Positions 44,013 to 63,837 of a stretch of DNA of 64,000 nucleotides are shown here, piece after piece (the stretch's first letter is position 1; each line of letters begins with the position of its first letter). Source of the DNA: a virus. The notes beneath the pieces are model-generated. The model was not told the DNA's origin and ran no database searches. It saw only the letters and a program-made list of their open reading frames with translations. The DNA lies in the IMG/VR virus record IMGVR_UViG_3300020162_002681, positions 82,233-146,232 of that record. One strand, given 5' to 3'. Position numbers and translations under genes: made by a program.

Positions 44013-45027
44013 GTAAACTATTGGTAGTCGAGAAAAAGCTAGCGGTATGTCAGGTGTTTGCTGCCTATACTTTCAAATTTGCATACTTATTGAAGTGCCT
44101 CAAACGTCGAGAAATCGTTGAATAACCATTGTTTTTGGTGCGCCTTATATTACTGCTTCTTCTTCTGGTAATCCAAACTTCTACTACTGCTAGGTATGTT
44201 TTAGCCATGCGGCGCTTGAGCCAGTACCTCAGTATCTTCCCTATTTAGCATATGAATCTACCCGTTTTGCCGTACTATCTATGTCATTTCACGATATGTA
44301 TGAAAGCCCGTCGGCGGTGAGACAATGCTGTGATGGCGCAAACTCGTTGGTATATGTGTAGATGATTGCAATTGCAACTATGTTGAGGCTGAAATGTAGA
44401 GTAGGTTGAAGCAAGTGGGGCAAACTATCATCTCTCGTTTAACTCTCGTATATACGAAGATAACATAGTTCTCCATTATCCCTCATATCGTGCTATAATC
44501 CTTACAGTGAAAGCGTTACAGCCTAATCACTACTCTCTCACACAAACATTACTAAGGAGAAATTAAAATGTATTCAGTAAATATTCGTTCAATAAATAGC
44601 ATATTCAATTTGTTGCATAGCCTAAAAATCGCTCTCATGACTTGCGAGTTAGTAAATGCCCAAACATACCTAAAGACATTTTTAAGTAGCTTAGCGGTCA
44701 AACTGCATAATACAGAATTACATATATGCAATTGCAAGAAGTGCACATACAAAATCTTGAAACATGTACGCGCTATATATGTTAATACGAAATTTACGGG
44801 ACAAAAAAGAATTTTCAAACTTTTTTCTCTATACGCTGTAAGACTTTCAGGCACTTTTAAACGGGTACATACTGTAAGGGGGGTTTACATTCTACGCGAT
44901 AGGGTTTATATTGATTCACATGAGATACGAGATAAGCAAAGCCAAGCGGTTAAACGCAAAGTCAAGCTCTCTATCCTATAGCTGACTTGGTTTCTAGCTA
45001 ACCTGAAAAAGATTTATTCAAAAAGGG

Positions 45028-45056
45028 TTGACATTCAAAAAGAAACCTACTAAGCT
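45028..45056 (+). promoter_or_regulatory. Strong sigma70-type early promoter
   Basis: TTGACA-17 bp-TAAGCT with A-tracts upstream. Confidence 0.75.
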
Positions 45057-45096
45057 ACTAAAGCGAACTAAAAAATCGCAAAACAACAAAAAAGAG

Positions 45097-45142
45097 CGCT
45101 TAACTCTTAAATATTAAGCGATTGAACCTTGAAAACTGAATA
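45097..45142 (+). promoter_or_regulatory. boxB-like hairpin plus rrn-type boxA antitermination element
   Basis: CGCTTAA...TTAAGCG hairpin, then GAACCTTGAAAA-CTGAATA. Confidence 0.65.
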
Positions 45143-45439
45143 TAGACTAGCGTTAAATCGCATCAAGTAATCAGTCTTGAGCGTCAAAACTTAGTACCTG
45201 TGTAAAAGATATCCTGTGATAAGGTTACGAGTGGAAAAGTACGGTTAGTCAGCTTATCTAGATAGCCTAGCAAACTACTAGAGACGCTTGCATTATTGCT
45301 TAGTGTGAGGCTGAAAAGCTTGTAACACTTATAAAGAGAAGGGTAGGCGTTATTCAACCGCTAAACCTTAAAAAGTTTTTTCGGAAAAATTTCGCTAAAC
45401 CTCTTAGTCGTGCTTACTGTGCTGTTAGGGACTAACGAT

Positions 45440-45682
45440 ATGTTAACTACCGAACAATACAAATTACTAGAAACATTATCTAGCGATGACATCAGACTAA
45501 TCAAGAGCGCTGTTACTTCTGACAACGTTCTAAACAAAACACGCTTTATTAAAATAGGCGATGCAATGAAAACCCATAAACTCATAGAGAGAGGGATTAT
45601 TGAGTCATACACAATAGACGGAAAATATAAAACAAGCGTTACAAAGGAATATTTTTCTTTGGCTTGCAGACTAGCATCATAA
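45440..45682 (+). CDS. Early hypothetical protein (possible winged helix)
   Basis: ATG at 45440 directly after the left repeat arm. Confidence 0.6.
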   Translation: MLTTEQYKLLETLSSDDIRLIKSAVTSDNVLNKTRFIKIGDAMKTHKLIERGIIESYTIDGKYKTSVTKEYFSLACRLAS

Positions 45683-45843
45683 AACACCAATTATCAACAG
45701 CACAGCAAACACGATTAAGAACTCTCTATAAGTCACACTGTAAGCGCTTAAAACATTCTGAGAATATAGCGCTATATAAAACACTGTTACTTCTTTCTGT
45801 ATTCCATACTGTGCTGTATAACTACACATAGGAGAATACCAAA

Positions 45844-46065
45844 ATGACTGATATACAAGCAATTGAAAGAAAGATTAAAAAGAAAGATGGACTACTAAAC
45901 AGTTTTTGTGACGACTTAAAACAAGAGCGTTTAGATGGTATCAATACTACATCTACAGAAAAGATTATCAATGAAATATCTGATGAGATTGAAATACTAG
46001 AAACAAACCTATATAATTTGATACAGTTTGAATCATCCGCTAATTCTAGCTTATCGTTTGTATAA
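45844..46065 (+). CDS. Early hypothetical protein (coiled coil)
   Basis: AGGAGA Shine-Dalgarno. Confidence 0.7.
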   Translation: MTDIQAIERKIKKKDGLLNSFCDDLKQERLDGINTTSTEKIINEISDEIEILETNLYNLIQFESSANSSLSFV

Positions 46066-46266
46066 ACACTTTACAGCACAGCATAGAGTATAGAAAGAAG
46101 TAACTAAGACAATGACACACTTAACTTAAAACAGTTAAGGTGAGCTATAGGCTACTAGCTGCAAGATTGCTAGGTTAAACTATCCTTGCTACTGTAACTT
46201 GGTTAAGTTAGTCTAGTCCTAACTGTGCTGTAAAGCTTATCACTTGAAAATATAGGAGATAAGACA

Positions 46267-46464
46267 ATGTTAGAATCACTACAACTTTTCTACGGTTGGT
46301 TAGCAATAGCTATAACGTTAGAAATACATCATAATTCGTATATCTGCGAGTTACCTGATAATTTGCACTGTAAAGATATAGAATTTCATTGTATAGAACA
46401 AAACCTTAAATCGGATAGATGGTTAGCAGCAGCTAACGAATTACACAATAAGTTATTTAAGTAA
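46267..46464 (+). CDS. Early hypothetical protein
   Basis: AGGAGA Shine-Dalgarno. Confidence 0.65.
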   Translation: MLESLQLFYGWLAIAITLEIHHNSYICELPDNLHCKDIEFHCIEQNLKSDRWLAAANELHNKLFK

Positions 46465-46619
46465 ACATAGCTACGGTACAGCTAAGACTAGCACTGCTAG
46501 TTCGTATGAGTGAAAAGCTTGTAACATTATGGGAGAAGGGGTGTACCCTTATTCAACCCTATCTCATAATTTCTAAAAATTCTATCCAATAATGGCTTGG
46601 TTTTAACCAAGATAGAAAA

Positions 46620-46910
46620 ATGAATCAATTCTACGGTTTTTATGACGATTCTACTGATACAAGCTTAGTATTTGAAGCTGAGAACGGTAAGCAAGCTAAT
46701 AATTTAGCCTGTGATGAAGGTATCATTTTTGAAAATACCCATACTTGCGGTTGCTGTTCTAATGAAGTTTACAGATATGATGATGATGAAGAAGGGGGTA
46801 CTTGGGAAGAGCTTTTAGAGAGTTATCAAGAACATCCCAAAACTATAGAATATTATCGTCTAAAAGTTCATTTTTTAGATGATACTGTAAAGTATCTCTA
46901 TTCTAAATAA
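46620..46910 (+). CDS. Acidic hypothetical protein
   Basis: 96 aa with CGCC motif. Confidence 0.6.
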   Translation: MNQFYGFYDDSTDTSLVFEAENGKQANNLACDEGIIFENTHTCGCCSNEVYRYDDDEEGGTWEELLESYQEHPKTIEYYRLKVHFLDDTVKYLYSK

Positions 46911-47005
46911 TTGATTTTTCCTAGCTGTATCGTATCGCATGGTACAGCTAAGAGCAATCAAGCTCTTTTCATCCGTACTGGCTAGTCTATAAGGCTAGAT
47001 GATTT

Positions 47006-47314
47006 ATGCAATATCACGCTTTAACTCTCGGTCGCAATATAGGCGATACAGTTGACGCAATTCCTGTAGAGTCTGCTGTACAGTTTGTAGATTCTGAACT
47101 AAATGCACAATACGGTATAGATTGTTTCTCAGTCTATGAAGGTTGTGGGTATTGGTGCGGTAGTCGTGAAAATACTATTCGGTTTGAGATATTTGGGCTG
47201 TCTGATAGTAATGCTAGACAGTTAGCAGCTACTATCGCTACTCGCTTTAATCAGGAAGCTGTAATGCTCTTGTCTATCAACTCACGCCCAAAATTCATTA
47301 AAGGAGATGAGTAG
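47006..47314 (+). CDS. Candidate SAM lyase/DUF3574-like protein
   Basis: GYWCGSRE...A..IA.RFNQEAVML pattern. Confidence 0.5.
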   Translation: MQYHALTLGRNIGDTVDAIPVESAVQFVDSELNAQYGIDCFSVYEGCGYWCGSRENTIRFEIFGLSDSNARQLAATIATRFNQEAVMLLSINSRPKFIKGDE

Positions 47315-47482
47315 ATGGAAGCTTTAATCGGTGCTGTCTTGTTTGGTGCTGTTGCTCCTAGCTTTGTAGCCTTGAATCTGTTTATTTCTGGTATGCAAAA
47401 AGATGACAAAATTCGGAATCTTGAAACAAAGATAGAGACGTTTGAGACGGTTCTATCTGTAATGAAAAAGAAAGAATTTTAA
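47315..47482 (+). CDS. Small membrane protein (55 aa), paralog of 49081..49251
   Basis: MEALIGAVLFGAVAPSF...VMKKKEF; AAGGAG Shine-Dalgarno. Confidence 0.7.
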   Translation: MEALIGAVLFGAVAPSFVALNLFISGMQKDDKIRNLETKIETFETVLSVMKKKEF

Positions 47483-47587
47483 TGAGTTCTCCTATGCGGA
47501 TAGTCTTGTACTATCCCGTTAAGAGCATTCATTTTGCTGAATGTTTCTACTATCCTTTATGGCTTGGCTACACAGTCAAGATAGTTA

Positions 47588-48270
47588 TGTCGCCTAAAAT
47601 CAGTTTTATTCTCGCTAACGTAAATGAAAGCGTTATTCGTTCTCAAGTTGAGAAGTATTACAATCTATCTGTACAACATTATGCAGATACTAAAGATTGG
47701 TACGTTTCAGAATTTCACGAAACAGCAAAATTCTGTCACGCAGTTAACCCGAAGTTTACTTTGATTCAATGGTGTGGCGTTATTGCTGCCCTATCCCCCT
47801 CTACTTCTTGGGATAAAAATGTCTACTATGCGATAAAACTAGCAGAATTGACACAAGCAGAAATCAGTGAACCTGATACGCTGTACAACTTTGGGGTGAG
47901 GGCAATGTATCGGCTATCCTTGAAAAAATCCTTGCAAATTCTATCTATTGAACAAAATGAGTTGCAAGAATCTGCTATTTTGAAAATTTTGAACGCCCCA
48001 AAAACGTCTCATTTTTTCTTGAACGGGTTGTATCCTAATCAAGAAACAGGTAGCACTATAGACAGTCACATGGCACAAATCTTTTGCCCTGACTTAAAAG
48101 GGAGTCTGTCGCCTACTCTCGCCGCCTATCGTGAAAGTGAGAAAATCTTCAATCGTATTGCTAGGGAGAAGGGCTTGCTAAGTCATCAGCTTCAAGCTAT
48201 GGTATGGTGTGCGAAAGTGTATGGTGTGCCACGTCCTAAGCAGCTAAAACTTGACATCAACTTGGTGTAA
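47588..48270 (+). CDS. Conserved phage protein, possibly HhH-glycosylase-like fold
   Basis: WY...GVIAALSP.T.W..N, PKT..F..N, TIDSHM and QLQAMVW motifs; likely start MSPK. Confidence 0.55.
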
Positions 48271-48488
48271 TATCATGAAAAACGAAGATTTAATTGATAG
48301 ATGTATAGGTGTAAGCATATTCCTTATAAGTGCTTACTTATTTACAGCTTGTTTAGCAGATATTATCATTCACATTGCAGCTAAAACTTGAGGTAAAATT
48401 GTGAAAACTTGGGAATATACTAAACGCTCTTGACTATTCCTAGCTGTATAGTGTAAGCTTCTATACAGCTAAGAGTATTCACTCTAAA

Positions 48489-49037
48489 TTGTTCATTACT
48501 AAATCGGAGATGACAGCTATGTTACAAGAACTAGCAGACAGATATATTGAGGGTAGGGATGAGACTTCTTTTCTGCCCAAACTTACAGGCGAAATTCTGT
48601 CGGGTTGGATTAATCATGACTATGATGAAATTATCGATAAGGGCTTGCAAGTTGAGTTAACCGCAAATCCTGCAAGTTACAAAACCACGCAAGAGCTATT
48701 TGACGATATTGCTCAAAACAATCATGTATTTATTTTCTCTCTTTACAATCAACATCCTTTATGGGATGAAGCAACCAATCAAAAGTTGAGAGCAGTACAC
48801 GATTATCGTCATCACTTTGAGTCTGGCAAGAGTTCGCTAGGGTTTAGTCTGTACGGTGAGTTTGAAGCTTACCAGAAAGCAAAAACTGATTTGCATGACT
48901 ACTTGTGGAAACATGAAAGCGTACCTACACTAGAACTCTATCCTACACTTGACAAAATCTTGTTTAGCGAGATAGTCCTACAAGCTGCTGTAAAGCATTA
49001 CACTGGTGAATTTGCAGCACAAAAGATTGTGTTCTAG
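48489..49037 (+). CDS. Hypothetical protein with RAVHDxxHH motif
   Basis: NQKLRAVHDYRHH...GE...SEI..Q; possible metal-binding site. Confidence 0.55.
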   Translation: MFITKSEMTAMLQELADRYIEGRDETSFLPKLTGEILSGWINHDYDEIIDKGLQVELTANPASYKTTQELFDDIAQNNHVFIFSLYNQHPLWDEATNQKLRAVHDYRHHFESGKSSLGFSLYGEFEAYQKAKTDLHDYLWKHESVPTLELYPTLDKILFSEIVLQAAVKHYTGEFAAQKIVF

Positions 49038-49080
49038 TTCACTCGCTTCTACTCGTTAATTAAAAGGAAAATAAAATAAA

Positions 49081-49251
49081 ATGACTGAATTATTTATCAC
49101 AGGTGCGCTTTTCGGTGCTGTAGTACCTAGCTTTCTAGCTTTCAATCTTCTCATCACTGGTATTTCCAAAGATGAAAAAATTCGACTTCTAGAAGTTGAG
49201 ATTGCTTGCACCGACAAAATCTTGGGTGTTATGAAGAAAAAGGAGTTTTAG
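49081..49251 (+). CDS. Small membrane protein (56 aa), paralog of 47315..47482
   Basis: MTELFITGALFGAVVPSF...VMKKKEF. Confidence 0.7.
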   Translation: MTELFITGALFGAVVPSFLAFNLLITGISKDEKIRLLEVEIACTDKILGVMKKKEF

Positions 49252-49851
49252 ATGGCTATTACAAGACTGCAACCACATCGCATGAATTTTTTGGGATTCA
49301 TTGAAAATCTCGACATATTCTTATCAAGTCTCCCAAAAGGTTTTGTGCATGGTAACGAGAAACACATAGCACAGTTGCCACATAATGAGAGTATCAAGGC
49401 GCATTATCGCTTCTGGCTTGAGAATGTACAGCCAACTTGCTATCGTGTCGTGGAGATTGAACCAGAGCTATTCCTTTGCATCCGAGATACTAATTCTACA
49501 ATCAATAAATGTGTAGTTCATAAAACTAGCGATTTTGTTGACTTCCATTCTGGGCGCTATTTTGAAGATGAGATTGCCGCAAACGAATACATCGATAAAG
49601 AATTGGAGAAAGCAAAAAAACCTAAACTGACTCTAAGAGATGGTACGCCCTACAATAAAGGAACTAGGGTAAAACACTACGATAGATTCGAGCGAGACAG
49701 TATAAAAACCCGTCTTGACTATATCGGTGAAGTAGTTTCTATAGAGTATTCTGTACATGGTGCTGACTATGTAGGCGTTTTGATTGATGGTGATATTCGC
49801 CACTTCTTTAGTAGTGAATTAATCCCTGCTGACAAGTACGTTAAACAATAG
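49252..49851 (+). CDS. Hypothetical protein (C-terminal SH3-like)
   Basis: KGTRVKH...IGEVVSI...VGVLID. Confidence 0.55.
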   Translation: MAITRLQPHRMNFLGFIENLDIFLSSLPKGFVHGNEKHIAQLPHNESIKAHYRFWLENVQPTCYRVVEIEPELFLCIRDTNSTINKCVVHKTSDFVDFHSGRYFEDEIAANEYIDKELEKAKKPKLTLRDGTPYNKGTRVKHYDRFERDSIKTRLDYIGEVVSIEYSVHGADYVGVLIDGDIRHFFSSELIPADKYVKQ

Positions 49852-49859
49852 GTAAGATT

Positions 49860-50066
49860 ATGCTCAACATTCAAAAGAAAGCATTCAAAAAAGAACTCAC
49901 TGAACTCCTCAGAAAATACAACGTCTCAATCAGTACAGGTGGTTATGGCGATTATTTTGAGGTTAAGGAGATTGGAACTAATCAAGATATTCTAATCATC
50001 AATGAGATTGAAATAACCTCCTCACAACTCGACAATAATTGTGAAGTAGTCATTAAAGAGGTATGA
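49860..50066 (+). CDS. Hypothetical protein
   Basis: Operon packing. Confidence 0.55.
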   Translation: MLNIQKKAFKKELTELLRKYNVSISTGGYGDYFEVKEIGTNQDILIINEIEITSSQLDNNCEVVIKEV

Positions 50067-50479
50067 CTATGGCTTACTGTGCTTGTAGGATGTGCAATGG
50101 CAATGGTTTGGTTACCTTGCCTAATAGACCCAACTTAGTTTGGAAAACATACAGATGTAGTCACTGCAACGCCACTGGTTGCGATGTAGAAGCTACAAAA
50201 AAACTTGACTTTTCCTATCTGTTCGTGAGAAGCTTACCCTTAACGAACAGACAAGAGCAGTCACGCTCTAACACAAACCATTCACACAATCGGAGTTATT
50301 ACATCATGTCTCAAAATTCACCTTCTCGCGAAGCATTTCTAAATCTTGAACACGCAAAGCTAACAGGCAATCTTCCTGATGTAGCTATCATCCGCAACAA
50401 TGCTCACCGCAAGTCTTGGGAACTGCGCGAAGCATCAACACTGAACACCGAAGCATCACATCCGCTAATCAAATCTTGA
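50063..50479 (+). CDS. Protein with DnaJ-type zinc-finger motifs
   Basis: CRMCNGNG and CSHCNATG. Confidence 0.6.
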   Translation: MTMAYCACRMCNGNGLVTLPNRPNLVWKTYRCSHCNATGCDVEATKKLDFSYLFVRSLPLTNRQEQSRSNTNHSHNRSYYIMSQNSPSREAFLNLEHAKLTGNLPDVAIIRNNAHRKSWELREASTLNTEASHPLIKS

Positions 50480-50546
50480 AACATTACTTGAGAGGGTACG
50501 CCCCTTAATTCCCCCTCTCTTTCTGCCAACTTTTTCGGAGAAAATT

Positions 50547-50864
50547 ATGCCACAAGACACTAGACTCCCTTTTCAAATCGAAGCTGACAAGCAATTCATT
50601 CGAGATTTTGGTACGACTTATTTTGATGGCACTTACCCTTCTTTGGGTAATCCTAATCCTTTACCAGAAATAGCTAAATGTTGTGACATCGAACCCAACA
50701 TCGTAAAACAGACAGAAGTGTTTGTAAACGAATTACTTCCTTATATTGTAATCTCTTGCCCTACTTGCGGTAGACAATCATTTAAGATGTATACAAAGTT
50801 TGGTGTCAAATCTCAGCTACCTTCCGAACCACAAATTAGATATTGGAATAGTGGAAAAACGTGA
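50547..50864 (+). CDS. Zinc-ribbon protein (Lar-like)
   Basis: CC...CPTCG...WN. Confidence 0.45.
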   Translation: MPQDTRLPFQIEADKQFIRDFGTTYFDGTYPSLGNPNPLPEIAKCCDIEPNIVKQTEVFVNELLPYIVISCPTCGRQSFKMYTKFGVKSQLPSEPQIRYWNSGKT

Positions 50865-53800
50865 ATAAAAAATATAATGGACACGCCAACAAAGATACTA
50901 ACGATGTAATTCAAGCTATCTTTGAAGATGATGCTGAATTAACTTTCTATTGCACACACCCCAGACTAGAGTTCGCTTGTAAGTTGAATCAAGACTACAA
51001 ACTTAAATTCCCTCTTGTAGATTTTCTAGAAGTGATGGAATACTTCGAGAGAATGAAGTCTTACTGGAAAAACTATGTACGGTCTGAATGGGGTGATTTC
51101 TATGGAGATTATACAGGATTATGACTAGACCAAAAGAGTTTGGATATTGGGATGTAACCCCAACTAAGCCAAAACCCAAACCAAGAATTAGCAAGCACAA
51201 AGCAAGGCTAAACGATAAGCTTTTAGTTATCACATTAACTAAAACAGAAAGTCATCATGATTTTTCTATCAATTATGATGGTCAAGACTTAGATACATGG
51301 GAGTTTGAGCGATTGATATTTCCTGACCTCTCAGACTTATCTCGAAGTCATCTCAATTTGTTTTCGCCTTGGTTTGTAAATATCTTTGCTCCTGCAAGAT
51401 ATGCACCAGACTACGAAGAGGCAGAAAAGAATAAATTCCCCTCTACTTTCAAAGTAGACCACTGGAATGTTGCTTTGCATATTGTAGAGCGTGTCGAAGT
51501 CGTTTTTAAGGTATTGCAAAATGAGTAGACTCGTATCAATTCAAGTCAAAGGCATTTCCAAGTTCAAGAAGCGTAGACAGTACGGCTCTTTGTACGGTAT
51601 TAAATTCGACCATTGCCTCGAATCTGACAGAGATTATGTAGAAAACAATATGGCACTTTGCATCGAATTTCTAGACACTCTTGAAAGAAGGAAACCCAAG
51701 CCAAAATGAATATTACTAAACTCACTCTTTCCTACCACATCGGAGTGGCAGAAAAAGACGCTAACAAGGCAAAGAACGAGACTAACCTTTGTAGGATAGC
51801 CTCAACACTCCAACAACGCTCTAACAACGCATTACTAGCAAGCATAGGAGAATTTTTAAATGGAACGTGATAACCAAGTACGAAACACTCGCTACAAGGT
51901 CAACAAAAACTGGCGAGTCGATATTCGCGAACCCATTGCTGCTGGTAGAAGACCTTATCTAGTTGTTATTGGTGAGTTCGTTCATAAGTATGGTGTAATC
52001 GATTACCCTATCCACTACAACACTTCTCCTGACTCTATTGCTTACGACTATCCCGAAAGCATTCCTCAGTTCGTCAAAAACAAGGTAACTGACTTGTACG
52101 AGAAATTCCCAGTCCTAAAATGTGAGAATAAACCATCGTGAAAATCTATAACGGACTACTGGTAGATATCTACATCTATCATCCTTCCCAAACGACTTGG
52201 CAAGTCAACCCTGAGACTGGTGAAAAACGAGAGTTTCTCACAAAATGGTGTGTTCCTCCTGTACTAACATACCCTGTTGCTGGTGTTGGCGTTTGCCTCA
52301 AGGGGGCTTCCAAAGTAGTCCCTTATCTCGAAAGAGTCAGAAAAGAAATCCCTCTTACAAGCACTGTCTACGCCTATGCAGACGAGTTGCCAAGTGGTTA
52401 CGACTTCTATATCGTTTACCCTGCCTACTACGAAGCTAGAGCGCAATTACGCAAGAGTACAGCGAAGCTAATCATGCCTTGCACTCCTGTATATCGCTTT
52501 GACACTACTAATCAACTAGAAGGTTTCTTGAACTTCACCAACTCACCCAACAAGGCTTTCGATTTCTCCCAAGACAATTATCACTATAACCAAAACTTTA
52601 AATAAAATGAAAGCAATTCAAGTTTCCTATTCCAGTATCACTCACAAGTATCGCGCTAAAGCTGAAGGTGTTCCCGCTATCTTTCGCAGTGTCGAACAAG
52701 ACGGTGGCTATACTGCTTCGCGCATCGCTCAAGAGCTTGCAGATAAGTACAACTGGCTAACGTTCAACGGCGTAGTCAAGTATCGCCTAGAGCATGGATT
52801 CTTGCCTAACGGTGATGATGTGTTTGTGTTTGTCGAATTACCAAAAGAATTTGCCCCTGATATTCGCAGAGACTTCCGCAAGCTTCTCGAAAAATACAAT
52901 GCTCAGTTGGTTGCAGTGAATAATGACGACCATCAGCCTAGTATAGATGTGGCGCTGAGAATTGAAAGTACTGGAAAGTTTCCCAGAGATATATTGATTG
53001 AATTTCGTTACCCAGTTGTTAATATTGGTGACTACGAATTATCGGAGGAAGCAATCGCTGATGACTAACAAACATTATTACTTTGAGACTACACCTATGG
53101 CATTATCCACAGTACCGATTAAAGAGTATTTAAAGACAATGGCTAAAACTAATCTCTCACGCGAACAACTCCTCGATTCTTTTCTGCACGGAGCTTGCGA
53201 CCTCTCTTCCAGTGGCTTGCAAATCGACCTTCAAGGCTATCTCTATGCCTCTGGCGAAATGATAGCCGCTTGGCGAGGTTATGGTCTTGGCGGTACTCTG
53301 TTCATCGATTGCGGTTCATCTAAGGTATGCAATCGTAGAGCCGCTAACGACCTCAAAGAGTTGGCAGAAAAAGAAGGCATTGTGTATGTTCCTTACAATA
53401 CACATTCATACATCATCTCGCCTGAATTTCAGTTTGCTGAAAGGTTAGTGTCATATACCATCTGGGCTACTCCTAAAGTAGTGAATCCTGAAAATATCTT
53501 TGCTCAATCCAAAAAAGTACTTGACAAAGCAGTGGAGAAGGCAATAAGCTTGGATTCGATTCACACATTGGTTACACAGACACAACACATTGCATCGTTA
53601 TTTAATTTTGATTTCGATGCATCACGTTACACATCACAAGCGACACAAGGAGCGCTTAACGCAAGAGCAGCAAAGCAATTACTAGCACAACATTATCTAC
53701 AACAATATCAACGCATCACACAGGAGCTAGAAGCATCATGAAAGCCTACCTAAGTCTAATTCCACATCCTACTTACCTAGAAGCTAACAAACAGACTCTA

Positions 53801-53956
53801 GAGGTTTGCACAGACTTGACTAACCACTGCTACCAATCTCAAGGGTTCATCAAAGTCTTAACTATTCCTGATTTACTTTCTTTTCTGCAAAACAAGTACA
53901 AAGAAAAGTTTCCGCTAGCTAATTACATCGCAGTTGCCAATTACATTCGCAAATAG
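50861..53956 (+). CDS. Run of tightly packed hypothetical early genes (50861, 51121, ~51521, 51860, 52138, 52607, ~53061, 53738)
   Basis: Consecutive plus-strand ORFs, many with overlapping stop/start codons; no recognisable domains. Confidence 0.55.
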
Positions 53957-54032
53957 ATTCTCTCTCGCTGGATTAGCTCTCCAGCCAAAGGTAATCTCTT
54001 ACCCCAACCAACTACACTAAGGAGCAATTCCA

Positions 54033-54599
54033 ATGACTATCATCACCGTAAAAGAAACCAAAAATCAATGGCAAGACCCTTTCTTCACTTTGTTCATTGA
54101 TGACAAGCAATCTGACTTTTCGTATCACAGTTCTCGCTTGCTGACCAACACTTGCAACGAAGACGGTGGTGGTATTTTCAACACAGAGGATACTGTTGTG
54201 AAATTCAAACGCAAGGACACTTGGGTTACTGTTACTTTCGATTTGTCTTGGGATGCAAAAGATTACAACGACCCCGCAAGAGAAATCAAGCGCCGAATCC
54301 AAGATGTAGAAGAAGCGTTTGAAGCTGTCTCTGAGGGTTACGAGAAAGTTTGGACTGTGAATCTCGGTGATGATAACGAATACATCGAAAAACGCAAGGC
54401 AGAAGCAGCACAAGCGACTCATTACAACGATGGTCTAATCGAATACAAAGTTGATGATTACTTGGCTGATGATGAAGACGAAAACGGTAACGATTGTTTT
54501 CGAGTTGTTAGTGCCGAAGGTTATGACGATACTCACTTGATTGCATTCTGCGACATTCCCCAAGAAGCCTACTTCCTAAAACTCACACGCATCGAGTAA
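54033..54599 (+). CDS. Hypothetical protein, paralog of 58866..59369
   Basis: AAGGAG Shine-Dalgarno; shared N-terminal domain. Confidence 0.65.
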   Translation: MTIITVKETKNQWQDPFFTLFIDDKQSDFSYHSSRLLTNTCNEDGGGIFNTEDTVVKFKRKDTWVTVTFDLSWDAKDYNDPAREIKRRIQDVEEAFEAVSEGYEKVWTVNLGDDNEYIEKRKAEAAQATHYNDGLIEYKVDDYLADDEDENGNDCFRVVSAEGYDDTHLIAFCDIPQEAYFLKLTRIE

Positions 54600-54663
54600 T
54601 CACAAAAGCTGACCTATCGGCTAGACGGGGATATTCGCTCACACTACTTTTCAGGAGAACAAA

Positions 54664-55659
54664 ATGACACTCGCAACTTTACCCAAAAACCCTCTCACAC
54701 ACAAAGAATTTAGCCTTCACGACCTGTTTCTCCGCCAAAGTCTAGAATGTACCTTTGGCAAGCTTGCAACGGGCTACAAGCCATCTAAAATCGCTGGTAA
54801 GCCTTTCACTGTCAAAGAGTTTATTCTCTTGCATACCGAAAAAGAATTGGTGCTGCTCTACAGACATTCAGGACGCTTGATTGAGAAAGTGTTTACCGAT
54901 GTTGACGCTTGCCTTGAATTTGCTCAAACTAGATTTGGAGTGACACTGTAATGAAAGAATTAGAAGCTGTCTGGCAAATTACCAAAGTAGATTTGTAATC
55001 TACTGGCAGAAAGATAAATTTGGCTGAACTCTCTTGGAAACTATCTGAGGAGGGACGCTTTACTGCTCAAGGTGGTATTTGGAACTCGAAACAAACTGAT
55101 TACATTACTTGCGGTCAGATGGTAGATAGAGTCGCTAAGTTCTTTCCTGACAATGCTTTGGTGCAAGAGATACTACAGGTTTGGGAAGTTTGGCACTTGA
55201 AGACTGGTCTACCTAAAGACGTAATCAAACAAATTAAATCATGGGAGAAAAAGACTGATGATTAAGAACATTCAAGACTTCGCCGCCTACTTCGGTGCTA
55301 CAACACCGACCGAACTGCATTGTGCTTTATGGAAGCACGATAGCTACATCTCATCTGCCACGTTAGAAGAGGCAGAAGGAGGAAAGACTTATAGAACTGC
55401 TTACGACCCTGAGTATGAAAAGCTGACTGAGTTTCCTTCGGGTATAGTTTCAGTTTACTTTAGTGCAATTAAAGAGGGTTGCGACTACGAACCAACAATG
55501 ACTCCTTTGGTCTTCCCTTTCCCAGAAGAAGATATCGATGAAGCTATTGATTATCTCAACTCAGAACTCAACCTTGCTGACGATTGGGGTGAAGATTTCA
55601 TTGAGCAATATGCCACAGACCACTCAGTTCCTTTACACGACAAATGGAAGGTAAAATGA
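54664..55659 (+). CDS. Three hypothetical early genes (54664, 55020, 55258)
   Basis: Consecutive ORFs. Confidence 0.55.
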
Positions 55660-55853
55660 CAATCCGCGTAACCATCTCAGGTGAGCCTGAATCTTTGCTA
55701 AGAGACTTATCTAAACTTTTAGGCAAAGACCTCAACCAAACATTTCGCAAAGCCTTGGCGACCGAAGCCTACTTCGCTAAACACGCTAAGGTTGGCTACA
55801 AAATTCTATTACAAGCTCCTGACGGAGAACTACGAGAGGTACTTTTAAAATGA
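55657..55853 (+). CDS. Ribbon-helix-helix (CopG-like) regulator
   Basis: MTIRVTISGEPESLLRDLSKLLGKDLNQTFRKALA. Confidence 0.65.
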
Positions 55854-57327
55854 CCACTACCACATCACTACACCACCGTCAAACCGCACCTCGCAAGTTC
55901 CGCGACCCTTACATTATCGCTCAGCAACTTGCGCTACTCACTCGCGCACAGAAAGACCTCATCCTCTCTTATCACGCTAAGAAGAAGCAAAATAAGTATC
56001 ACTGGTCAGATGACTATGTTGCAAGAGATGGGCAGGGATTTTGGGTTTCCCTTGAAGATTCCACATCTATCCAAGACCACACCCTCTTTTCTGCCCTCCT
56101 AGCGGAAGCGAATGACGAAAACATCTTCGAGATTGTTTTGAATACCGACTACGAAGTGGCTAAACTCGCCCTTCGGATAGATTTACCAACTAGCCCTGAT
56201 ACCGATATCATACTGGTATTAGCTGGTGAGCTAGAACCAGACCGACTCGAATACCAAGATGTGCGACTGGTCACTTGGTACTTGAACGACAAAGCTGATA
56301 GACATGCAACACTACAGAAAGATAGGTACAGCCAATGATTACTACAATTGAGCAAGTCAAAGAACACATCGTACAGAATCACGAACGTAGCTTAGAGTTC
56401 CCAATCACAGTGACGACTAGCTCATCAGGAGAATTTGTAGAGCTTCGTAATGAATACGACCACGAACTCATTGAGCTACCTATTTCCGAGCAAGATTTGA
56501 GTTTTGCTATCGAATCTATTGAAGAAAACGCTATCGAATTTTCGCAGGGGTAACTTCATGACACACAACACATTAGCACGACCTCCTCCGATATACAGGC
56601 AGTGCCTTAAAAGATTTTCAAATTTGGTAAAGATAAATCGCGACACTTAATTCTGAATGGAACTGGTGAAACTTATGCGAACGCCGTTAAAAGCGGCACA
56701 CCATCTAACGATGGCTTCAATCAATCAGGAGCAAAGCCATGCAACTTCTTAAATTTACCTCTTTAGTTAGATGTTATTTAATAGCTCTTGCTGAGACAGT
56801 TAAAGAGAACACCACACCAGCTACAAATTATGGTTGGCAACATCTCATAGTCAACGCTGCTCTGAATCCTTACTGGCAATTTCCAGAGGGACTATACAGA
56901 GCGCACATCGATTTGTATTGCGAAATTTACTATTATTTAGGATACCCACAACCTCATGAAACTAAATCAACTCATTGACCGATTCACACCTTCATATCGT
57001 ACAGTAGAAGCAATTAAGGGTGGACTAGCTATTCTAGGCATTGTTGGCGCAGTAGGCGGCTTCATCTACATCTTTGGCACTGAATCGCTCAAAGCTCACG
57101 ACCGAGCTTATGGGAACTTGGTACAATTCTCTCGCGCCAACAACTTGACTGCTGGCACTTGTAATCAGTGGGACACCGACAATGACGGACGAATCTCCTG
57201 CACAGCTACTGACAAACAAGGGCGCTTCATTCAACTAGAGTGCGGTGCTAACTGGCTCTCCGAAAATACGGCTTCTTGCAATCTCCCCAAGCTACGCATT
57301 CAACCCACCTCTTCTTCCTCTAACTAG
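55850..57327 (+). CDS. Hypothetical genes (55850, 56335, 56739, 56956); the last is membrane-anchored with a Cys-containing domain
   Basis: Consecutive ORFs; 56956 has a transmembrane segment plus CxxxDTDNDGRISC. Confidence 0.55.
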
Positions 57328-57580
57328 GCTCACTATGTTTTTCCCCTTCATCGGTTTCTGGACTGTATCGGCTGGTTTTTGTCTTATTGTCTGCTTTCTA
57401 TCACCTCCTAAAACTAAATGAACCTCGTCAAATTAATTACTAGCTTTGCACTTCCAATTGGGGTCGCTATCGCCTTGTTTCACCCCAACAGCGACAACTT
57501 AGGCAGAGGTTTAGCTCTTGGCTCAACCATTCTTTTCTGCACCGCAACCGCGATTGAAACATTTACTCAGGATTAAATAA

Positions 57581-58693
57581 ATGATAACAGACACTCTCGC
57601 CATTGACAACACCCCAAAATCTCTCCACATTAGTACCACAGGGGCATTCGGTCAGCTCGAAACATCTAAGGTAGTTCCTCACATTACCCCTGATGACATC
57701 ATCGAACAAGCTGAACTCGAAAAGTGGCAAGCATTCATGTATCCCAACATGAACGAAGATAATTTACCTGTAAATGAACTCAAGTCTAACTATATCCGCC
57801 AAGAATTTCTTAAAGAAGATGCAGTTGGTATCAACCCCATTTACCTAGAACAAGGACACATTGACCATCATGGGCGCAATTTCGCCCTCAAGGTTCCCAG
57901 TAAATATCGCATCATCCAATACCAAGATGGTTTGCGTTGGCTTGAAAGCTACACAATGGAAAGCTTGATTGAGATTCAAGATTGGCTTCTACTCGACTCT
58001 GGCGCAATTCTAGCGGTCAACAACCTCATTCCCGATGAAGTCCTCACGATTCAAGGCGAAGCAGACAAAATCACACCTTACATGATTTTCTGCTTATCTC
58101 ATGATGGAACGACACCTCGCGCAGTCTTCTTCAGCTCGTTTCGAGCGATTTGCAAGAACACTCTAATGATGGCTCTAGCTTCTGCGAAAGGCACTGAAAA
58201 GTTCTTTGGATTCGACCCCAAAAAAGGTAGTCACAAGTCACCGCAAGAACTCATGGCGATGGCTAAGAAGAACATCGACTTGGCTAAAACTAAGTTCCAC
58301 GATGAGACTGCTCCGCACCTCGAAGCTCTGCGTGACCTTCAACTTGACGAAAAAGTGGTTGACACACTCACTCGCGACCTCTTTGCAATCCGCCGCACAC
58401 AAGAAATTCCTTTGTTCCTCGATGAGGATGAGACTTATCCTAGCTCAATCAAGAACTACCACAAGTTCATGGACATCTACAGAAGCTTGTCTGATGTTGA
58501 TATCTTCGATGCAAGTCAGCACACTGGATACCGTTACGCCAATGCTGCGACCTCTTTTGTCAAGACTACTGGCAAGGATAATGGATTTGACCCTCTAGCT
58601 GGCTTCAAGGGCAATATGTTTGGCAAAGTTCGCAAAAATGCATCCGACTACCTAAGCGAGTTGCTACCTACAAAACACATCGGCGCGGCTTAA
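57581..58693 (+). CDS. DUF932-family protein
   Basis: YRIIQY, LSHDGT...FRAICKNTLMMAL. Confidence 0.8.
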   Translation: MITDTLAIDNTPKSLHISTTGAFGQLETSKVVPHITPDDIIEQAELEKWQAFMYPNMNEDNLPVNELKSNYIRQEFLKEDAVGINPIYLEQGHIDHHGRNFALKVPSKYRIIQYQDGLRWLESYTMESLIEIQDWLLLDSGAILAVNNLIPDEVLTIQGEADKITPYMIFCLSHDGTTPRAVFFSSFRAICKNTLMMALASAKGTEKFFGFDPKKGSHKSPQELMAMAKKNIDLAKTKFHDETAPHLEALRDLQLDEKVVDTLTRDLFAIRRTQEIPLFLDEDETYPSSIKNYHKFMDIYRSLSDVDIFDASQHTGYRYANAATSFVKTTGKDNGFDPLAGFKGNMFGKVRKNASDYLSELLPTKHIGAA

Positions 58694-58865
58694 GTCTTTA
58701 GGTGGATGCGTTGCCGCAAAACGTGTAGTAAATTAGCACAGAACCCGAAAAAGACGGCTTGCGCTGAGCAAGAGTCGCAGTTACCCGTATCCAACAAAGA
58801 ACGGTTGACGGCTGCTATAGGTTCTTTTCTCTTCTTTTTGTAATTAGCTATCAGGAGTATTCATT

Positions 58866-59369
58866 ATGTCTTACGCTAGAGTTCGAGTTGAAAAAATCGG
58901 TACATATTTCCAGTTAGAGATTGATGGCAAGGTTGCTAAGTTTGGTACAGATTCATCTAATATCTTGACAGGGGATATTAAGTCTGGCTCTGAATTTAAT
59001 GGAATTTTTTCTTCTAACTACGAAGTCCCTTTCTATAAGGGTTCCGTAAAACTACACATCAACTTCACAATGCCTTGGAGTATCGGGAATTATGTGGATA
59101 ACCCACTTGCAGAAATCCGCCGCAGAGTTCGATTGGTGCAAGAAACTTTTGCCAAAGCAGAGGCAGAAAAGGAAGTGTGGGAAGGTATTGTTGTGGGTTC
59201 ACTACTTACTGAGCCTGAGAAGCCAGAAACGTTTACTATCATCTACACTGGTAGTCAAGGTGAAGGGTACAAGTACGTTACCACAATCTCACGCTCTTTA
59301 TTACAAAACAAACTTTCCGAGTTCTCCAATCCAATTTTCGTATTCAAAGGTATACCTGAAACTGTATGA
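58866..59369 (+). CDS. Hypothetical protein, paralog of 54033..54599
   Basis: AGGAG Shine-Dalgarno; shared domain. Confidence 0.65.
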   Translation: MSYARVRVEKIGTYFQLEIDGKVAKFGTDSSNILTGDIKSGSEFNGIFSSNYEVPFYKGSVKLHINFTMPWSIGNYVDNPLAEIRRRVRLVQETFAKAEAEKEVWEGIVVGSLLTEPEKPETFTIIYTGSQGEGYKYVTTISRSLLQNKLSEFSNPIFVFKGIPETV

Positions 59370-59567
59370 GAAAGTTTACTGGCTTTGGCAAACGTGTATC
59401 TGGTATTACGTCCAAGCCACCAGTCCCAACCCCAACCAAACTCGAAATGAAGCGACCTCCTACTACGCCTCTAGAAGAAATGGCTCAGATATTCCGACTC
59501 ATTACTCGATAATCACTCTCGCGGTACTTAGAAGGCAAGTACCGCTTCATTTAATATAGGAGATATT

Positions 59568-59747
59568 ATGTTTGACGTTATTGAAGTTGCGATTGATTCT
59601 AGTAAAGTTCTTGCATTCATGACAGAGAATAAAACCGAAAAAAATGCTCAAGCTGTTGTGCAGATGGCTGTCTACCGTAGAGGTGTTGAAGCTAGCTTTT
59701 ATGCTGTTGTCGAAGCTGGTAAATATAAAATTGGAGATATATACTAA
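59568..59747 (+). CDS. Small hypothetical protein (59 aa)
   Basis: AGGAGA Shine-Dalgarno; preceded by the hairpin at 59521-59545. Confidence 0.6.
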   Translation: MFDVIEVAIDSSKVLAFMTENKTEKNAQAVVQMAVYRRGVEASFYAVVEAGKYKIGDIY

Positions 59748-59927
59748 TGTCTTATCCAAACTGGACTACCGAACCTTGCCTCAATTGTGGTGGTGATGTC
59801 CAAACTTATAGAACCACCACGACACCTTCAGATATAAAGTTGGTGTGTTTCAAGGACGATAGAAGTTTAGAGGTACATAAGAAAATCAAAAAAGTTTGTT
59901 GCGGTGATTGCAGTAAAAAGGTGCTAA

Positions 59928-60674
59928 ATGTATAGACTTAATGTTTGCAACTTGTCTGGTACTTTTGAGAAGAGTTTCGGGCTGAATGGTTTCTCTGAAG
60001 ATTACTATGCGTTGCTAAATGGTTTTAGAGATTTGGAAGGGTCTGTAAATACCTTTTATTGCAGTACAATGTCTGACAAAACGAAATTACGAGACTGGCT
60101 CACAAACTACAGGCTCTTCTGCAAGTTGTCGCATTTCTTCGATGACTTCAACTTCTTCATCAATGAGAGTGTAAGAACAAGAGCCGAACACGACTCGAAG
60201 CACTCGGTTGACAGACGTTTGCATGACTTCATTCGGCGCGTTGAGAGTATGAAAATTCCTCAGCAGACTCAAGATACTATTGCAGGTTTCTTGAAAATGC
60301 AGAGGGCGAAAGCTGCACTTATGGCTACAAGGGAAAATTCGTGGCTAGTTCCTGAAGGATTGCCTCAAGGCAAATTAAATATTTGGCACAGCAAAGCTAA
60401 ACTATACATCACCGACACTCACTTAGAAAAGCTTGGAGCAGCACTAAACAAAGAAGCTGAGATAGGCGAAGACGGACTGAACCAATTCGACCGAACTCGC
60501 ACCCAACTTTTGCAACAACTTGCTACTACTTTGCAGAAATTTCCTTACATGAGATTGGGTCAACTACTCTCAAATTCTCTTCCTGAAGGTACTGACATTT
60601 TCTATGTAACCGATGCTAGATTGATTCAACTACTAAAAGATTTCGAGGCGCAACATGGGAATCGAGATAAGTAA
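59928..60674 (+). CDS. Hypothetical protein
   Basis: 248 aa; C-terminal PYMRLGQLL...DIFYVTD module. Confidence 0.6.
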   Translation: MYRLNVCNLSGTFEKSFGLNGFSEDYYALLNGFRDLEGSVNTFYCSTMSDKTKLRDWLTNYRLFCKLSHFFDDFNFFINESVRTRAEHDSKHSVDRRLHDFIRRVESMKIPQQTQDTIAGFLKMQRAKAALMATRENSWLVPEGLPQGKLNIWHSKAKLYITDTHLEKLGAALNKEAEIGEDGLNQFDRTRTQLLQQLATTLQKFPYMRLGQLLSNSLPEGTDIFYVTDARLIQLLKDFEAQHGNRDK

Positions 60675-60843
60675 AGATTTCAGCTCTAGGGATATCAAGT
60701 TTATTACAAAGTGGTTCGATATTCAATTTTGTTTCCAAGGTATCCGATATTGGTCTTGGCAATTTAGAGTTGAAACTTCAGATTACCTAACTTTCATCGC
60801 ACTACCTACTTTAGACATTTACTTTTGGAGCAAAAAAACTAAT

Positions 60844-61428
60844 ATGGCTAGTACATCTTCTCTCATTGTGTGGCAACAAAGCGTAGCTGACTCCCTGCTT
60901 GCAAGATTGGAAGCGATTGACTCTCACTGCATCATTGCGGGAGGCGCTCCTAGAGACTGGTATTTAGGTCGTCAGGCTAAGGACTTGGACGTTTACCTCT
61001 ATGTGCCTCGAAACTCTTTACTAAGACACTTCAAGACGCAATTGGCAGCTATCGGCATTACTAACATCGAGCAGTCTACGCTTTCAATGGATGACGCTCG
61101 GTACATTATCAATCCACTTGTGCGCTGGGTTTTCAATTACGAAGAGGATGGTGAAAAGGTTCAGTTGATTGTGATGAAAGAGTCAACTTACACTAGCGTT
61201 GTGCAACACTTCCCACTCTCGATTTGCAAGGTTTGGTACAAGGGCGGTAAAATTATTCCGTATTCTCGCCAATTCACCGAGACAACTGACCGCAAAGCAA
61301 TCGTAAAAACTGGTACTGAGTATTCGTCTGATGGTTGGTACATCGACAAGATTCTGGCTAAATTCCCTGAGTTCACTTACTATGAATCGATGAGTGACTT
61401 TGTACTTGCTAACGACCTAACTACCTGA
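60844..61428 (+). CDS. Nucleotidyltransferase (CCA-adding/poly(A) polymerase head-like)
   Basis: IIAGGAPRD...KDLDVY signature; likely start MASTSS. Confidence 0.8.
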   Translation: MASTSSLIVWQQSVADSLLARLEAIDSHCIIAGGAPRDWYLGRQAKDLDVYLYVPRNSLLRHFKTQLAAIGITNIEQSTLSMDDARYIINPLVRWVFNYEEDGEKVQLIVMKESTYTSVVQHFPLSICKVWYKGGKIIPYSRQFTETTDRKAIVKTGTEYSSDGWYIDKILAKFPEFTYYESMSDFVLANDLTT

Positions 61429-61926
61429 AAAACTAACATAGACTACAAGCAAAATCATGAAACTCTACATATTCTTTTCTGCCCTAGCTGCGCTGGCTCT
61501 AAAGTTAGCGCACGATGTTCTTCCCGAAGTTCGCTTCGAGTTCCAAATCGATTGGTTCTGGTTCTGGGCGCTTCTTATTGTCGATGCTTGGATTATCTAC
61601 TCTGTTGTTTTCTTTCTACTTCAAGGGTGATGACATGGAGTTTGATTTTTCTCAACTCGAAAATTATGTTGCACCAATTGCAAATAATTGCAGATGGTTT
61701 GTTCAGTGGAACTCATACACCTACGACAAATCTTCCCCTCAGTATGGGCAGTGGCAAGATGCTAAAAACTGGAATACTGGAAGGTTTGGCTCAGATGAGT
61801 TTGGTGGTCACACTTCAGAAATCATGGCTCATGCATATGCTGCTGAAGCGAGTGAGTGGGGGGAGATTATCAAACCGAGTGAAGATACGAAACAGTACAT
61901 TAGAAATAAACATTGGCGCTATTAGT

Positions 61927-63837
61927 ATGTCTCCAGAACCAGACAGCATTCTTTCCTCATCTGTTTCCCTAGTCATTGATAACCATCACTGGTTTCGTCA
62001 GACTCACGGTGACAATATCACTTGGATTCCGATGTTCGCAGATTATTACTATGCCTATCGCGCAGTAGAAAAGCAGTGGTGGTACGTTGACGGGGAGAAG
62101 AAATTCAAAGTCGATGCAGTACCAGATACTGAAATTATCTACTGGAATCTTGTAATTCCTAAGCAAGAGCCATCACTCCCAAAACCTGAAGTTGATTTTC
62201 AAATCATTACTCCTGCCTACTGTCGAAAAATTTCCAACATTCAGTACTCCAATTTTGCTTGTAGGCATAAAGGGGTTTATTGGGTGAGACATTGGGAATT
62301 ATTTAGAGGCAATGTTAATTTTGTTCGTTGGCACTCCCCTGAAACCTCAGTAGAATATTTCTTTTCACTGAACGATAAATTCCAAAATGTTTGGCACACT
62401 AAGTCTGAGCCTGAAGCAGAGTTTGTTGAGATTAAAGAGATTCCAGATATTGAATTACAATACCAAGCAATTTATCAGGAGACGAAAAAGCCGTGAGTCA
62501 ACCACAGTATCGCCTCGTATCTCGCGGTCAGTCCTTCACTGGTGAAGAAGTAATCGAGCTTCACGTTTACAGTCAGTCTCGCGGTATATATCAAAAAATG
62601 CCAGTGAAAGTTACTATTAATCCAGAGTGTGTAATCAAGACACTCGAAGAGCTTGAGAATTGGGCTAAAGAGAGCTGGAGTACCCACTAATGAACGTAAA
62701 ACGTGTAGTTATAGTTGTCGAGCATGAAGATAGAGAGTGGAGTCGTACAGGCTCCGAGGAGAAAACTACTTGGGCAGAGAGTGTTAATGGTCTTCAGTAT
62801 CAAAAAATAGGTGAAGCAGACTGGCAACACACCTGCAATCGCGGATTGTCTTGGTTGAATTGCAGCAGCACTCCAATAATTGAGAAAGAATATCAGAGAA
62901 AGATTAATGAGTCAGTTTAAAGAGTTAGAATGCGTGACTGATGTTGTTTTTAAGGGTAATCATTGGAATCGTAGACAACTAGACAATTATATTCATTGGT
63001 GTTGCATTGAAGTAACTCACGAATATAAGTATGATGACCCTAGAGATGGTTGGCTATTCAGAAAATCCGTAAACCACTATTGGGATAGCTGCAACGTGCC
63101 TGAGATTGAGACTTTACATAGAAAAGCGGTAGCTAAATATGAGCAATTACAGTCAGCTTGAGTTTTGTCAAGTAGAAGAAGTGCGAGTTGTGACCCCCAA
63201 GAAAATCCACATCATTCACTGCCCTGAGCAAAAAGCGTTCAAAGTAATAGGTTCTTCCAGAGACATTACTAAATGTCTCTCAGAGCTTCAGAAAGGGAAT
63301 CCAATTACTTTGACCTGTTACGTAAGTTTTCACGGCACTAATGATACCAAGTGGACTATCCTCGATGATTGTAAAGAGTTCTCACTTCATGGTGATTGGC
63401 TGCAAGATAATGAGTCAGTTCGAGCATACCTCAACTCACAATTAAATATTTTGGTGAACTAAATGGAAATTTTGAAAACTATCACAACAGTGAATGCAGT
63501 TGGAGTATTTAACCAACTACGCCGTTATGAATATCCCAGTGGAATCATTGATTGGGTTACATTATCTCCTAGAAAAGAGTACAAACTTGAAAACGGGCAC
63601 TGGTCTTTATTTAACGAAGAAATTTGGAAGTATGAACCCCTAACCGAAAAACCTCCAACTTGGGAGCAAGAGTATCAAGAAGCACTTTTGTCACAACACC
63701 CCTTTGAAAAACGTGTCCGTGAGATTATCTCTACTGTATCTAAAGACATAGAGAATAGAGTCAACCATATCATGTGTGAAATAGCTGATGATGTAGACTT
63801 TGAAGACTTAGTTTCGGAGTATTTAGCAAAGACATGA
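61927..63837 (+). CDS. Cluster of small Trp-rich hypothetical genes (61927, 62493, 62690, 62908, 63463)
   Basis: Consecutive ORFs, most sharing W-x-R and P-x-x-E-x-x-Y-Q-like motifs. Confidence 0.5.
63139..63462 (+). CDS. Degenerate T5orf172/GIY-YIG-like protein
   Basis: IHII...KVIGSSRD...LQKGNP...HGDWL. Confidence 0.6.
   Translation: MSNYSQLEFCQVEEVRVVTPKKIHIIHCPEQKAFKVIGSSRDITKCLSELQKGNPITLTCYVSFHGTNDTKWTILDDCKEFSLHGDWLQDNESVRAYLNSQLNILVN

Follow-up and report, generated by a model that had tools for sequence, protein, structure and literature searches.

The 64,000-nucleotide stretch of viral DNA analysed here, referred to as the window, contains a promoter, a hairpin and a boxA element in the order known from the leaders of ribosomal RNA operons, placed ahead of a long row of small protein-coding genes. 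The window comprises bases 82233-146232 of a 146,232-bp IMG/VR record and thus represents the right end of the phage, whose genome has 99-bp direct terminal repeats. The promoter and boxA lie within a gene-free region of 1.5 kb between a leftward gene block, which ends with a minus-strand gene at 43258-43938, and the rightward arm, where every credible ORF is encoded on the plus strand and the only recognised products are DUF7178 and DUF932. The layout suggests that this arm is expressed early. The boxA stands in sense orientation shortly behind the promoter and heads this long one-directional unit, whose transcription start is predicted. A search for tRNAs in the 64-kb window found none, so boxA is not the head of a tRNA block here, and Rfam returned no family at gathering score in the window and none for 44800-45500 at E up to 5. 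The closest named relatives of the window phage are the Pseudanabaena phages PA-SR01 and Pam2, in keeping with the cyanobacterial host claimed by a first-pass annotation of this DNA. That annotation had also taken the boxA as a pointer to such a host, for which it is insufficient alone, as an identical 19-mer occurs in 16S leaders of Clostridia. The features of the region are collected in Table 1.

Table 1. Features of the leader region and the downstream arm, with positions in the window; functional labels are predictions
Feature	Position	Strand	Basis or remark
Candidate promoter P1 (TTTACA, 17 nt, TATATT)	44884..44912	+	Promoter scan 10/12
Purine-rich leader tract GAGATACGAGATAAGCAAAGCCAAGCGG	44922..44949	+	Behind P1
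Probable decayed first boxA AACCTGAAAAAG	45000..45011	+	Layout shared with L259 and L261
Promoter P2 (A-tract and GGG, -35, spacer, -10)	45020..45056	+	Host rrn-type pattern
Start region ACTAAAGCGA	45057..45066	+	Alignment to host AATAAAGCGC
Hairpin in boxB position (7 bp, 10-nt loop)	45097..45120	+	Ends 3 nt before boxA
boxA GAACCTTGAAAA with D4-like tail CTGAATA	45124..45142	+	18/19 to Pseudanabaena spacer
First hairpin behind boxA	45159..45183	+	Common to PA-SR01
One-directional arm, about 40 mostly small ORFs	45440..63837	+	Reaches genome end
Long-range stem 1 around first ORFs	45402-45426 with 45696-45720	+	Inverted-repeat scan
Long-range stem 2 around first ORFs	45786-45818 with 46072-46104	+	Inverted-repeat scan

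The elements named in the first-pass annotation are found where it had placed them. Reading of the sequence confirms the TTGACA-17-TAAGCT promoter at 45028-45056 (-35 TTGACA at 45028-45033, a spacer of 17 nt, -10 TAAGCT at 45051-45056), the hairpin formed by CGCTTAA (45097-45103) and TTAAGCG (45114-45120) and, after the 3-nt spacer ATT, the 19-mer GAACCTTGAAAACTGAATA at 45124-45142. Since TAAGCT agrees with TATAAT at only 3/6 positions, P2 had been overlooked by the generic promoter scan; it is of the same type as the -10 element of the host rrn promoters (TAACTT). Transcription probably starts near 45063, in a start region of which ACTAAAGCGAACTAAAAAA recurs in the related phage L260. The boxA is not a product of chance: for GAACCTTGAAAA, taken as an exact 12-mer, the expectation is 0.02 per shuffled window, and 0/100 shuffles contained the 19-mer with A or C allowed at position 16. 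If one mismatch is allowed, the 12-mer is reached by 52/100 shuffles and alone is not significant. The exact 12-mer is present as a single copy in the entire 146-kb phage genome. The arm contains, at 53521-53549, a second promoter-like site of the form TTGACA-17 nt-TAAGCT, which has AAAAAGTAC in front of it and no boxA behind it.

Folding of 45058-45145 gives a minimum free energy of -9.5 kcal/mol (z -1.9) and a predicted structure in which boxA is single-stranded behind the hairpin. The full leader (45058-45445) folds no better than its shuffles (z -0.29), and we therefore claim local hairpins only and not a structured leader RNA. For the hairpin that follows boxA at 45159-45183, comparison with PA-SR01 reveals two pairs kept through changes on both sides (CAAG/CTTG vs TGAG/CTCA), a covariation that is to be taken as a hint since it involves two sequences only. 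The 110-nt module behind boxA is 87% identical between the window and PA-SR01, and different modules are found in the other relatives. In minus-strand orientation, the T-run CTCTTTTTTG follows the hairpin at 45097-45120, which scores there as a weak terminator-like site, with no minus-strand gene to its right.

For comparison with cellular signals, genome contigs were scanned for GAACCTTGAAAACTGNATA, and hits came from numerous cyanobacteria, among them Pseudanabaena minima Chao 2107 and a MAG of Pseudanabaena. Both Pseudanabaena genomes contain a 16S-23S spacer with GAACCTTGAAAACTGCATA and a hairpin ending 3 nt upstream of it, while the boxA of the host 16S leader is looser (GAACCTAGACAACCAAATA). 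The cyanobacterial boxA has been described as GAACCTTGAAAA and the D4 element as CTGCATA (PMC8461337), and this source and the Pseudanabaena spacers agree with the cyanobacterial boxA and D4 that the first-pass annotation had given. Alignment to the boxA of the cyanobacterial rrn leader and spacer, which it had put forward as a check, yields for the boxA-D4 stretch of the Pseudanabaena spacer a match of 12/12 over the core and 18/19 over the extended 19-mer. The phage tail CTGAATA agrees with D4 CTGCATA at 6/7 positions and is identical to the tail found at the heads of host tRNA operons.

In the host rrn promoter, AAAAAAGGGTTGACA is followed after 17 nt by CTAACTTA and ATAAAGCG, and in the phage promoter AAAAAGGGTTGACA is followed, likewise after 17 nt, by CTAAGCTA and CTAAAGCG, so that AAAAGGGTTGACA-N17-CTAAnnTA-TAAAGCG is common to both. 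Within the 5.4-Mb genome of P. minima, AAAAGGGTTGACA-N17-CTAAnnTA occurs at the two rrn promoters only; it marks rrn promoters of two further host-family genomes as well and is unique within the phage genome. The boxA is located at +61 to +63 in the host rrn leaders and at +66 in the phage (67 nt after the -10 hexamer), and the host 16S begins at +258 or +259 where the contig extends that far. Phage and host leaders align in the same order throughout, from promoter over start region and hairpin to boxA, and their global alignment reaches z = 4.5 against dinucleotide shuffles. The best local match of the host leader in the whole phage is the 45028-45142 locus, although narrowly (score 35 vs 31 for the next). 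The predicted folds of the phage site and of both host rrn sites leave boxA unpaired and place the end of a hairpin 2-3 nt ahead of it. Because the match is confined to the functional blocks and does not extend to the intervening sequence, recent capture of host DNA was rejected as the whole story.

At position 16 of the 19-mer the cyanobacterial rrn spacer carries C, whereas the phage carries A, as do the heads of tRNA operons. The exact A-variant 19-mer is not a spacer sequence in cyanobacteria; at least 11 cyanobacterial genomes carry it shortly before long tRNA arrays, and in many filamentous cyanobacteria GAACCTTGAAAACTGAATA stands 10-150 nt upstream of the array. The tRNA-operon boxA represents a third class of host boxA besides those of the rrn leader and the spacer; in the term counts for a paper on the Anabaena trn operon (PMC10272220), boxA is absent. 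In five Pseudanabaenaceae genomes including P. minima, a chromosomal tRNA operon opens with a consensus promoter, about 40 nt behind which lies G[CT]ACCTTGAAAA[CT]TGAATA (boxA at position 1501 of loci L286-L290); the operon encodes Phe-Asn-Leu-Pro-Met-Thr in P. minima and one other genome and has a similar gene order in the rest. These host 19-mers are identical to those of Pam2 and of the related phage L062, which means that the two phages carry the stable-RNA operon signal of the host. A 1904-bp contig of the Pseudanabaena family (L285; contig C231 of genome G024), in which no tRNA was found, contains tandem units of about 212 nt, each with two TTGACA-type promoter-like sites and an exact GAACCTTGAAAACTGAATA, the boxA copies lying at 737 and 949. 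At the level of sequence, we regard the copying of host rrn and tRNA-operon signals by the phage as solid.

The conservation of the locus was followed across seven phages, namely the window phage, L260, L062, Pam2, PA-SR01, L259 and L261. They contain nine boxA-like 19-mers, each located 40-99 nt behind a promoter composed of TTGACA or TTGCAA, 17 nt, and TAAGCT, TAACTT or AAAGCT. Positional conservation in related phages, which the first-pass annotation had listed as a further check, is thus borne out, boxA being kept behind the promoter in all seven. When the sequences are anchored on boxA, the mean column majority amounts to 0.90 within the 19-mer vs 0.49-0.51 in the flanks, an island of conservation that points to retention of boxA by selection. 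As three unrelated modules follow boxA in different relatives, the element sits at a junction of swapped modules. The boxA of PA-SR01 (GTACCTTGACAATTGAATA) differs at 3/19 positions and resembles the host 16S-leader type (GACAATT); the similar GAACCTAGACAATTAAATA is the 16S-leader boxA in one genome of the host family. L260 and L062 lack the hairpin found at 45097-45120, and Pam2 and PA-SR01 have another, GC hairpin in its place; wherever one is present among the window, Pam2 and PA-SR01, it ends 3 nt before boxA, as it does in the host spacer. The designation as boxB thus has the host-like position in its favour, and against it the loss of the hairpin in two relatives and its replacement in two others.

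Upstream of P2, the position of P1 is occupied in L259 and L261 by TTGACATTCTA...-10...CATGAGATACGAG, with an intact G[TC]ACCTTGAAAATTTCATA behind it, and these two phages feature tandem promoter-boxA units about 160-200 nt apart. Judged by this shared layout and not by alignment, 45000-45011 of the window is probably the remnant of a first boxA. The purine-rich tract behind P1 is conserved in L259, L261 and L062, and its likeness to GAGAGACGAGCGAAAGCGAAGCG of the host rrn leader and to GAGAGCGAGAACGAGAGCG of Pam2 is descriptive, not statistical.

Beyond this group of phages, the exact 17-mer ACCTTGAAAACTGAATA is found in at least 114 IMG/VR contigs, compared to 23 viral contigs for a reversed-control 17-mer and 35 for the spacer C variant. 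Phages thereby appear to favour the A variant over the C variant, which occurs barely above control (35 vs 23). Among the matches listed, these contigs form 64 groups with unrelated flanks, in which the 17-mer lies outside ORFs of at least 80 aa in 43/64 contexts (4/16 for the control) and inside a sense ORF in 3/64 (5/16 for the control), and G is present two bases upstream, outside the query, in 57/64. Coding downstream is mainly on the same strand (41/55 contexts), a TTGACA-like promoter lies within 150 nt in only 12/62, six of the 17-mers precede phage tRNA clusters and no rRNA genes adjoin the 17-mer, again among the matches listed. For the 61 viral contexts listed, the 45 nt upstream fold with a mean of -10.5 kcal/mol vs -6.1 and -6.9 in the controls (p = 3e-7 and 3e-5), a hairpin just upstream being the rule; in 37/61 of them it ends 0-4 nt before the G. 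Genes downstream of these other viral copies encode anti-repressors, ParB-like and MazF-like proteins and serine integrases, and several of the contexts match Faecalibacterium prophage sequence. Many of the at least 64 viral or mobile-element contexts with a hairpin followed by GNACCTTGAAAACTGAATA stem from gut samples. We found no description in the literature of hairpin plus GNACCTTGAAAACTGAATA as a general leader signal. Since one exact 17-mer turns up in at least 64 independent viral settings, the habit of using it may be common.

As regards the factors that could act on such a signal, NusB is present in both Pseudanabaena genomes, while a search for Rho in the same two genomes found none (best match 33 bits vs a cut-off of 509); neither NusB nor NusG was found to be encoded by the phage. 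The established view, to our knowledge, is that cyanobacteria lack Rho. In a host without Rho, classical antitermination directed against Rho cannot be the purpose of boxA, and the probable benefit is that a structured early transcript is made faster and without interruption. Complexes formed on rrn operons bring about faster elongation that resists pauses and hairpins and assist long-range RNA pairing. The proposal of the first-pass annotation that the phage borrows the rRNA antitermination machinery of its host thus stands insofar as rrn and tRNA-operon signals are copied and conserved, and falls where it would imply an anti-Rho function. Its argument that a hairpin-rich arm requires antitermination was dropped, since terminator-like hairpins are not enriched there (18 vs 14.1 +/- 3.9 in shuffles). 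The ORF-enclosing stems it had noted downstream were recovered in the inverted-repeat scan; their arms measure 25 nt and 33 nt, with a complementarity of 88% in either stem, and the first begins 260 nt behind boxA. Concerning a transcription reach of at least 19 kb, the one-directional arm is present as claimed, but the reach itself is doubtful: judging from the two-boxA layout of rrn operons, a single boxA combined with cleavage of the first stem would lead to loss of the tether after about 300-600 nt.

We consider it moderately likely that P2 and its leader serve the phage as a functional copy of the start from which the host transcribes its stable RNA. The host polymerase would initiate at the rrn-type P2, and about 60 nt further on the nascent RNA would expose a single-stranded boxA just behind the hairpin. 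There, host NusB-S10 together with NusA and NusG would bind and remain tethered to the polymerase, converting it to the fast, pause- and hairpin-resistant form of rRNA and tRNA operons. The tethered complex may in addition delay local folding, allowing the long-range stems around the first ORFs to form as in pre-rRNA. Nus binding, the start site and every functional effect are what we infer from the nucleotide sequence, and we know of no cyanobacterium in which boxA function has ever been tested. A wider proposal, which we judge rather unlikely, is that boxA-Nus acts chiefly as an RNA chaperone in Rho-less cyanobacteria, that the early operon is built like pre-rRNA, with an rrn promoter, boxA and genes enclosed by long-range stems whose formation the tethered complex assists for RNase III-type processing, and that phages and mobile elements of Cyanobacteria and Clostridia commonly use a hairpin with GNACCTTGAAAACTGAATA as a signal meaning 'treat me as stable RNA'.

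Other explanations would place the function elsewhere. It is conceivable, albeit unlikely, that the promoter copy is what matters, providing very strong transcription tied to growth rate, with boxA carried along or of minor effect. The promoter, its -10 region and the start region are indeed common to the host rrn promoter and unique to the rrn type, and the need for boxA in a Rho-less host is unclear; however, conservation within the region is highest in boxA (0.90 vs about 0.5), which survives module swaps as well as changes of the promoter (TTGCAA/TAACTT in Pam2, an AAAGCT -10 in L259 and L261) and turns up again in 64 viral contexts unrelated to one another, with a TTGACA-like promoter within 150 nt in 12/62, among the matches listed. 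That the motif is a signal for processing, stability or protein binding unrelated to Nus, for instance an entry site for a ribonuclease or S1, appears quite unlikely to us: the phylum's accepted boxA forms its core, which can be aligned to the boxA of other phyla, and the order of hairpin and boxA is the layout of rrn antitermination. Such a signal would nevertheless fit a conserved unit of 19 nt that is longer than the roughly 8-12 nt read by NusB-S10 (PMC3177189), a CTGAATA/D4 tail to which no function is assigned, and the position of the motif at the head of heavily processed precursors, be it rRNA, tRNA arrays or the stem-enclosed phage ORFs.

Abundant early boxA RNA might also serve as a decoy that soaks up NusB-S10 and lowers rRNA and tRNA synthesis of the host, which the exact match to the host boxA, its two copies in L259 and L261 and the expected strength of the promoter would favour. 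We deem this very unlikely, as a decoy needs no sense orientation at the head of an operon, whereas downstream genes lie on the same strand in 41/55 viral contexts among the matches listed, and as one boxA per genome makes a weak sponge compared to the host's own rrn and tRNA transcripts. A last reading, to which the terminator-like score of the hairpin at 45097-45120 with its minus-strand CTCTTTTTTG run lends itself, sees in this hairpin a terminator or insulator for the minus strand and in the neighbouring boxA a functionless leftover of captured host DNA. This reading is scarcely credible: no minus-strand gene lies to the right of the hairpin, all ORFs at 45440-63837 being on the plus strand, the hairpin is missing in L260 and L062 while boxA stays, and captured DNA without a function would not form the best-conserved island in relatives that have diverged.

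If P2 and its leader do work as a copy of the host's stable-RNA start, a host without Rho would make this phage a natural system in which to look at roles of boxA and the Nus factors beyond Rho, that is speed, resistance to pauses and hairpins, and RNA folding. The leader is short and portable and, provided that it works, would be a useful part for expression in cyanobacteria. The rrn promoter copy and the tRNA-operon boxA, in turn, offer sequence clues for assigning hosts to uncultured cyanophages. We found no paper describing a boxA element in cyanophages, and the papers on PA-SR01 and the Pam phages do not mention promoters or boxA. Outside the lambdoid phages, Nus factors have been viewed as dedicated to rRNA (PMC5725501).

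Compared to cyanobacterial rrn operons, the phage locus has an identical boxA core, a hairpin 3 nt upstream and a similar promoter, start region and spacing; it differs in that its boxA heads about 40 protein genes and is present in one copy instead of two (leader and spacer), and in that its hairpin is unrelated in sequence to the cyanobacterial rrn hairpin and not conserved. With the rrn operons of Escherichia coli, where NusA, NusB, NusE, NusG, SuhB and S4 assemble on boxB-boxA-boxC, it shares the succession of hairpin and boxA, possibly tandem promoters (P1 at 44884 and P2 at 45028) and long-range helices that recall the leader-trailer stalks. The rrn complex is described as a chaperone for long-range helices (PMC10250234). 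Unlike in E. coli, no GT-rich boxC is seen in the phage and an anti-Rho role is inapplicable; the phage boxA fits only about 6/10 specified positions of the boxA GYTCTTTAANA (PMC5725501).

Among phages, the lambda nutL and nutR sites resemble the locus in that a boxA in phage RNA recruits host Nus factors at the start of an early operon, which is a prediction in our case. In lambda, however, boxA precedes the N-binding boxB, whereas the window phage has its hairpin ahead of boxA, with no known N-like protein to go with it; with the order reversed and the hairpin dispensable in relatives, a lambda-type nut site was rejected. Another parallel is T7, for which Savalia et al. 2010 are said to have reported a boxA element downstream of the promoters A0-A3. 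PMC3709561, which describes that work, places a boxA antitermination element behind early T7 promoters and ascribes a phenotype to boxA mutations. T7 and the window phage are alike in being lytic, in having no lambda-N-type protein known and in carrying a host-type boxA just behind strong early promoters (A0-A3 in T7) for host RNA polymerase, so that the window phage fits a T7-type early boxA at the sequence level, with early timing suggested by its layout. T7 has a host with Rho, an element of the E. coli boxA consensus and genetic support for it, whereas the host of the window phage lacks Rho, the phage promoter also copies rrn, and the element is predicted from sequence. The use of a host rRNA-type boxA by phages, known from lambda and T7 in E. 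coli, would thereby extend to cyanophages.
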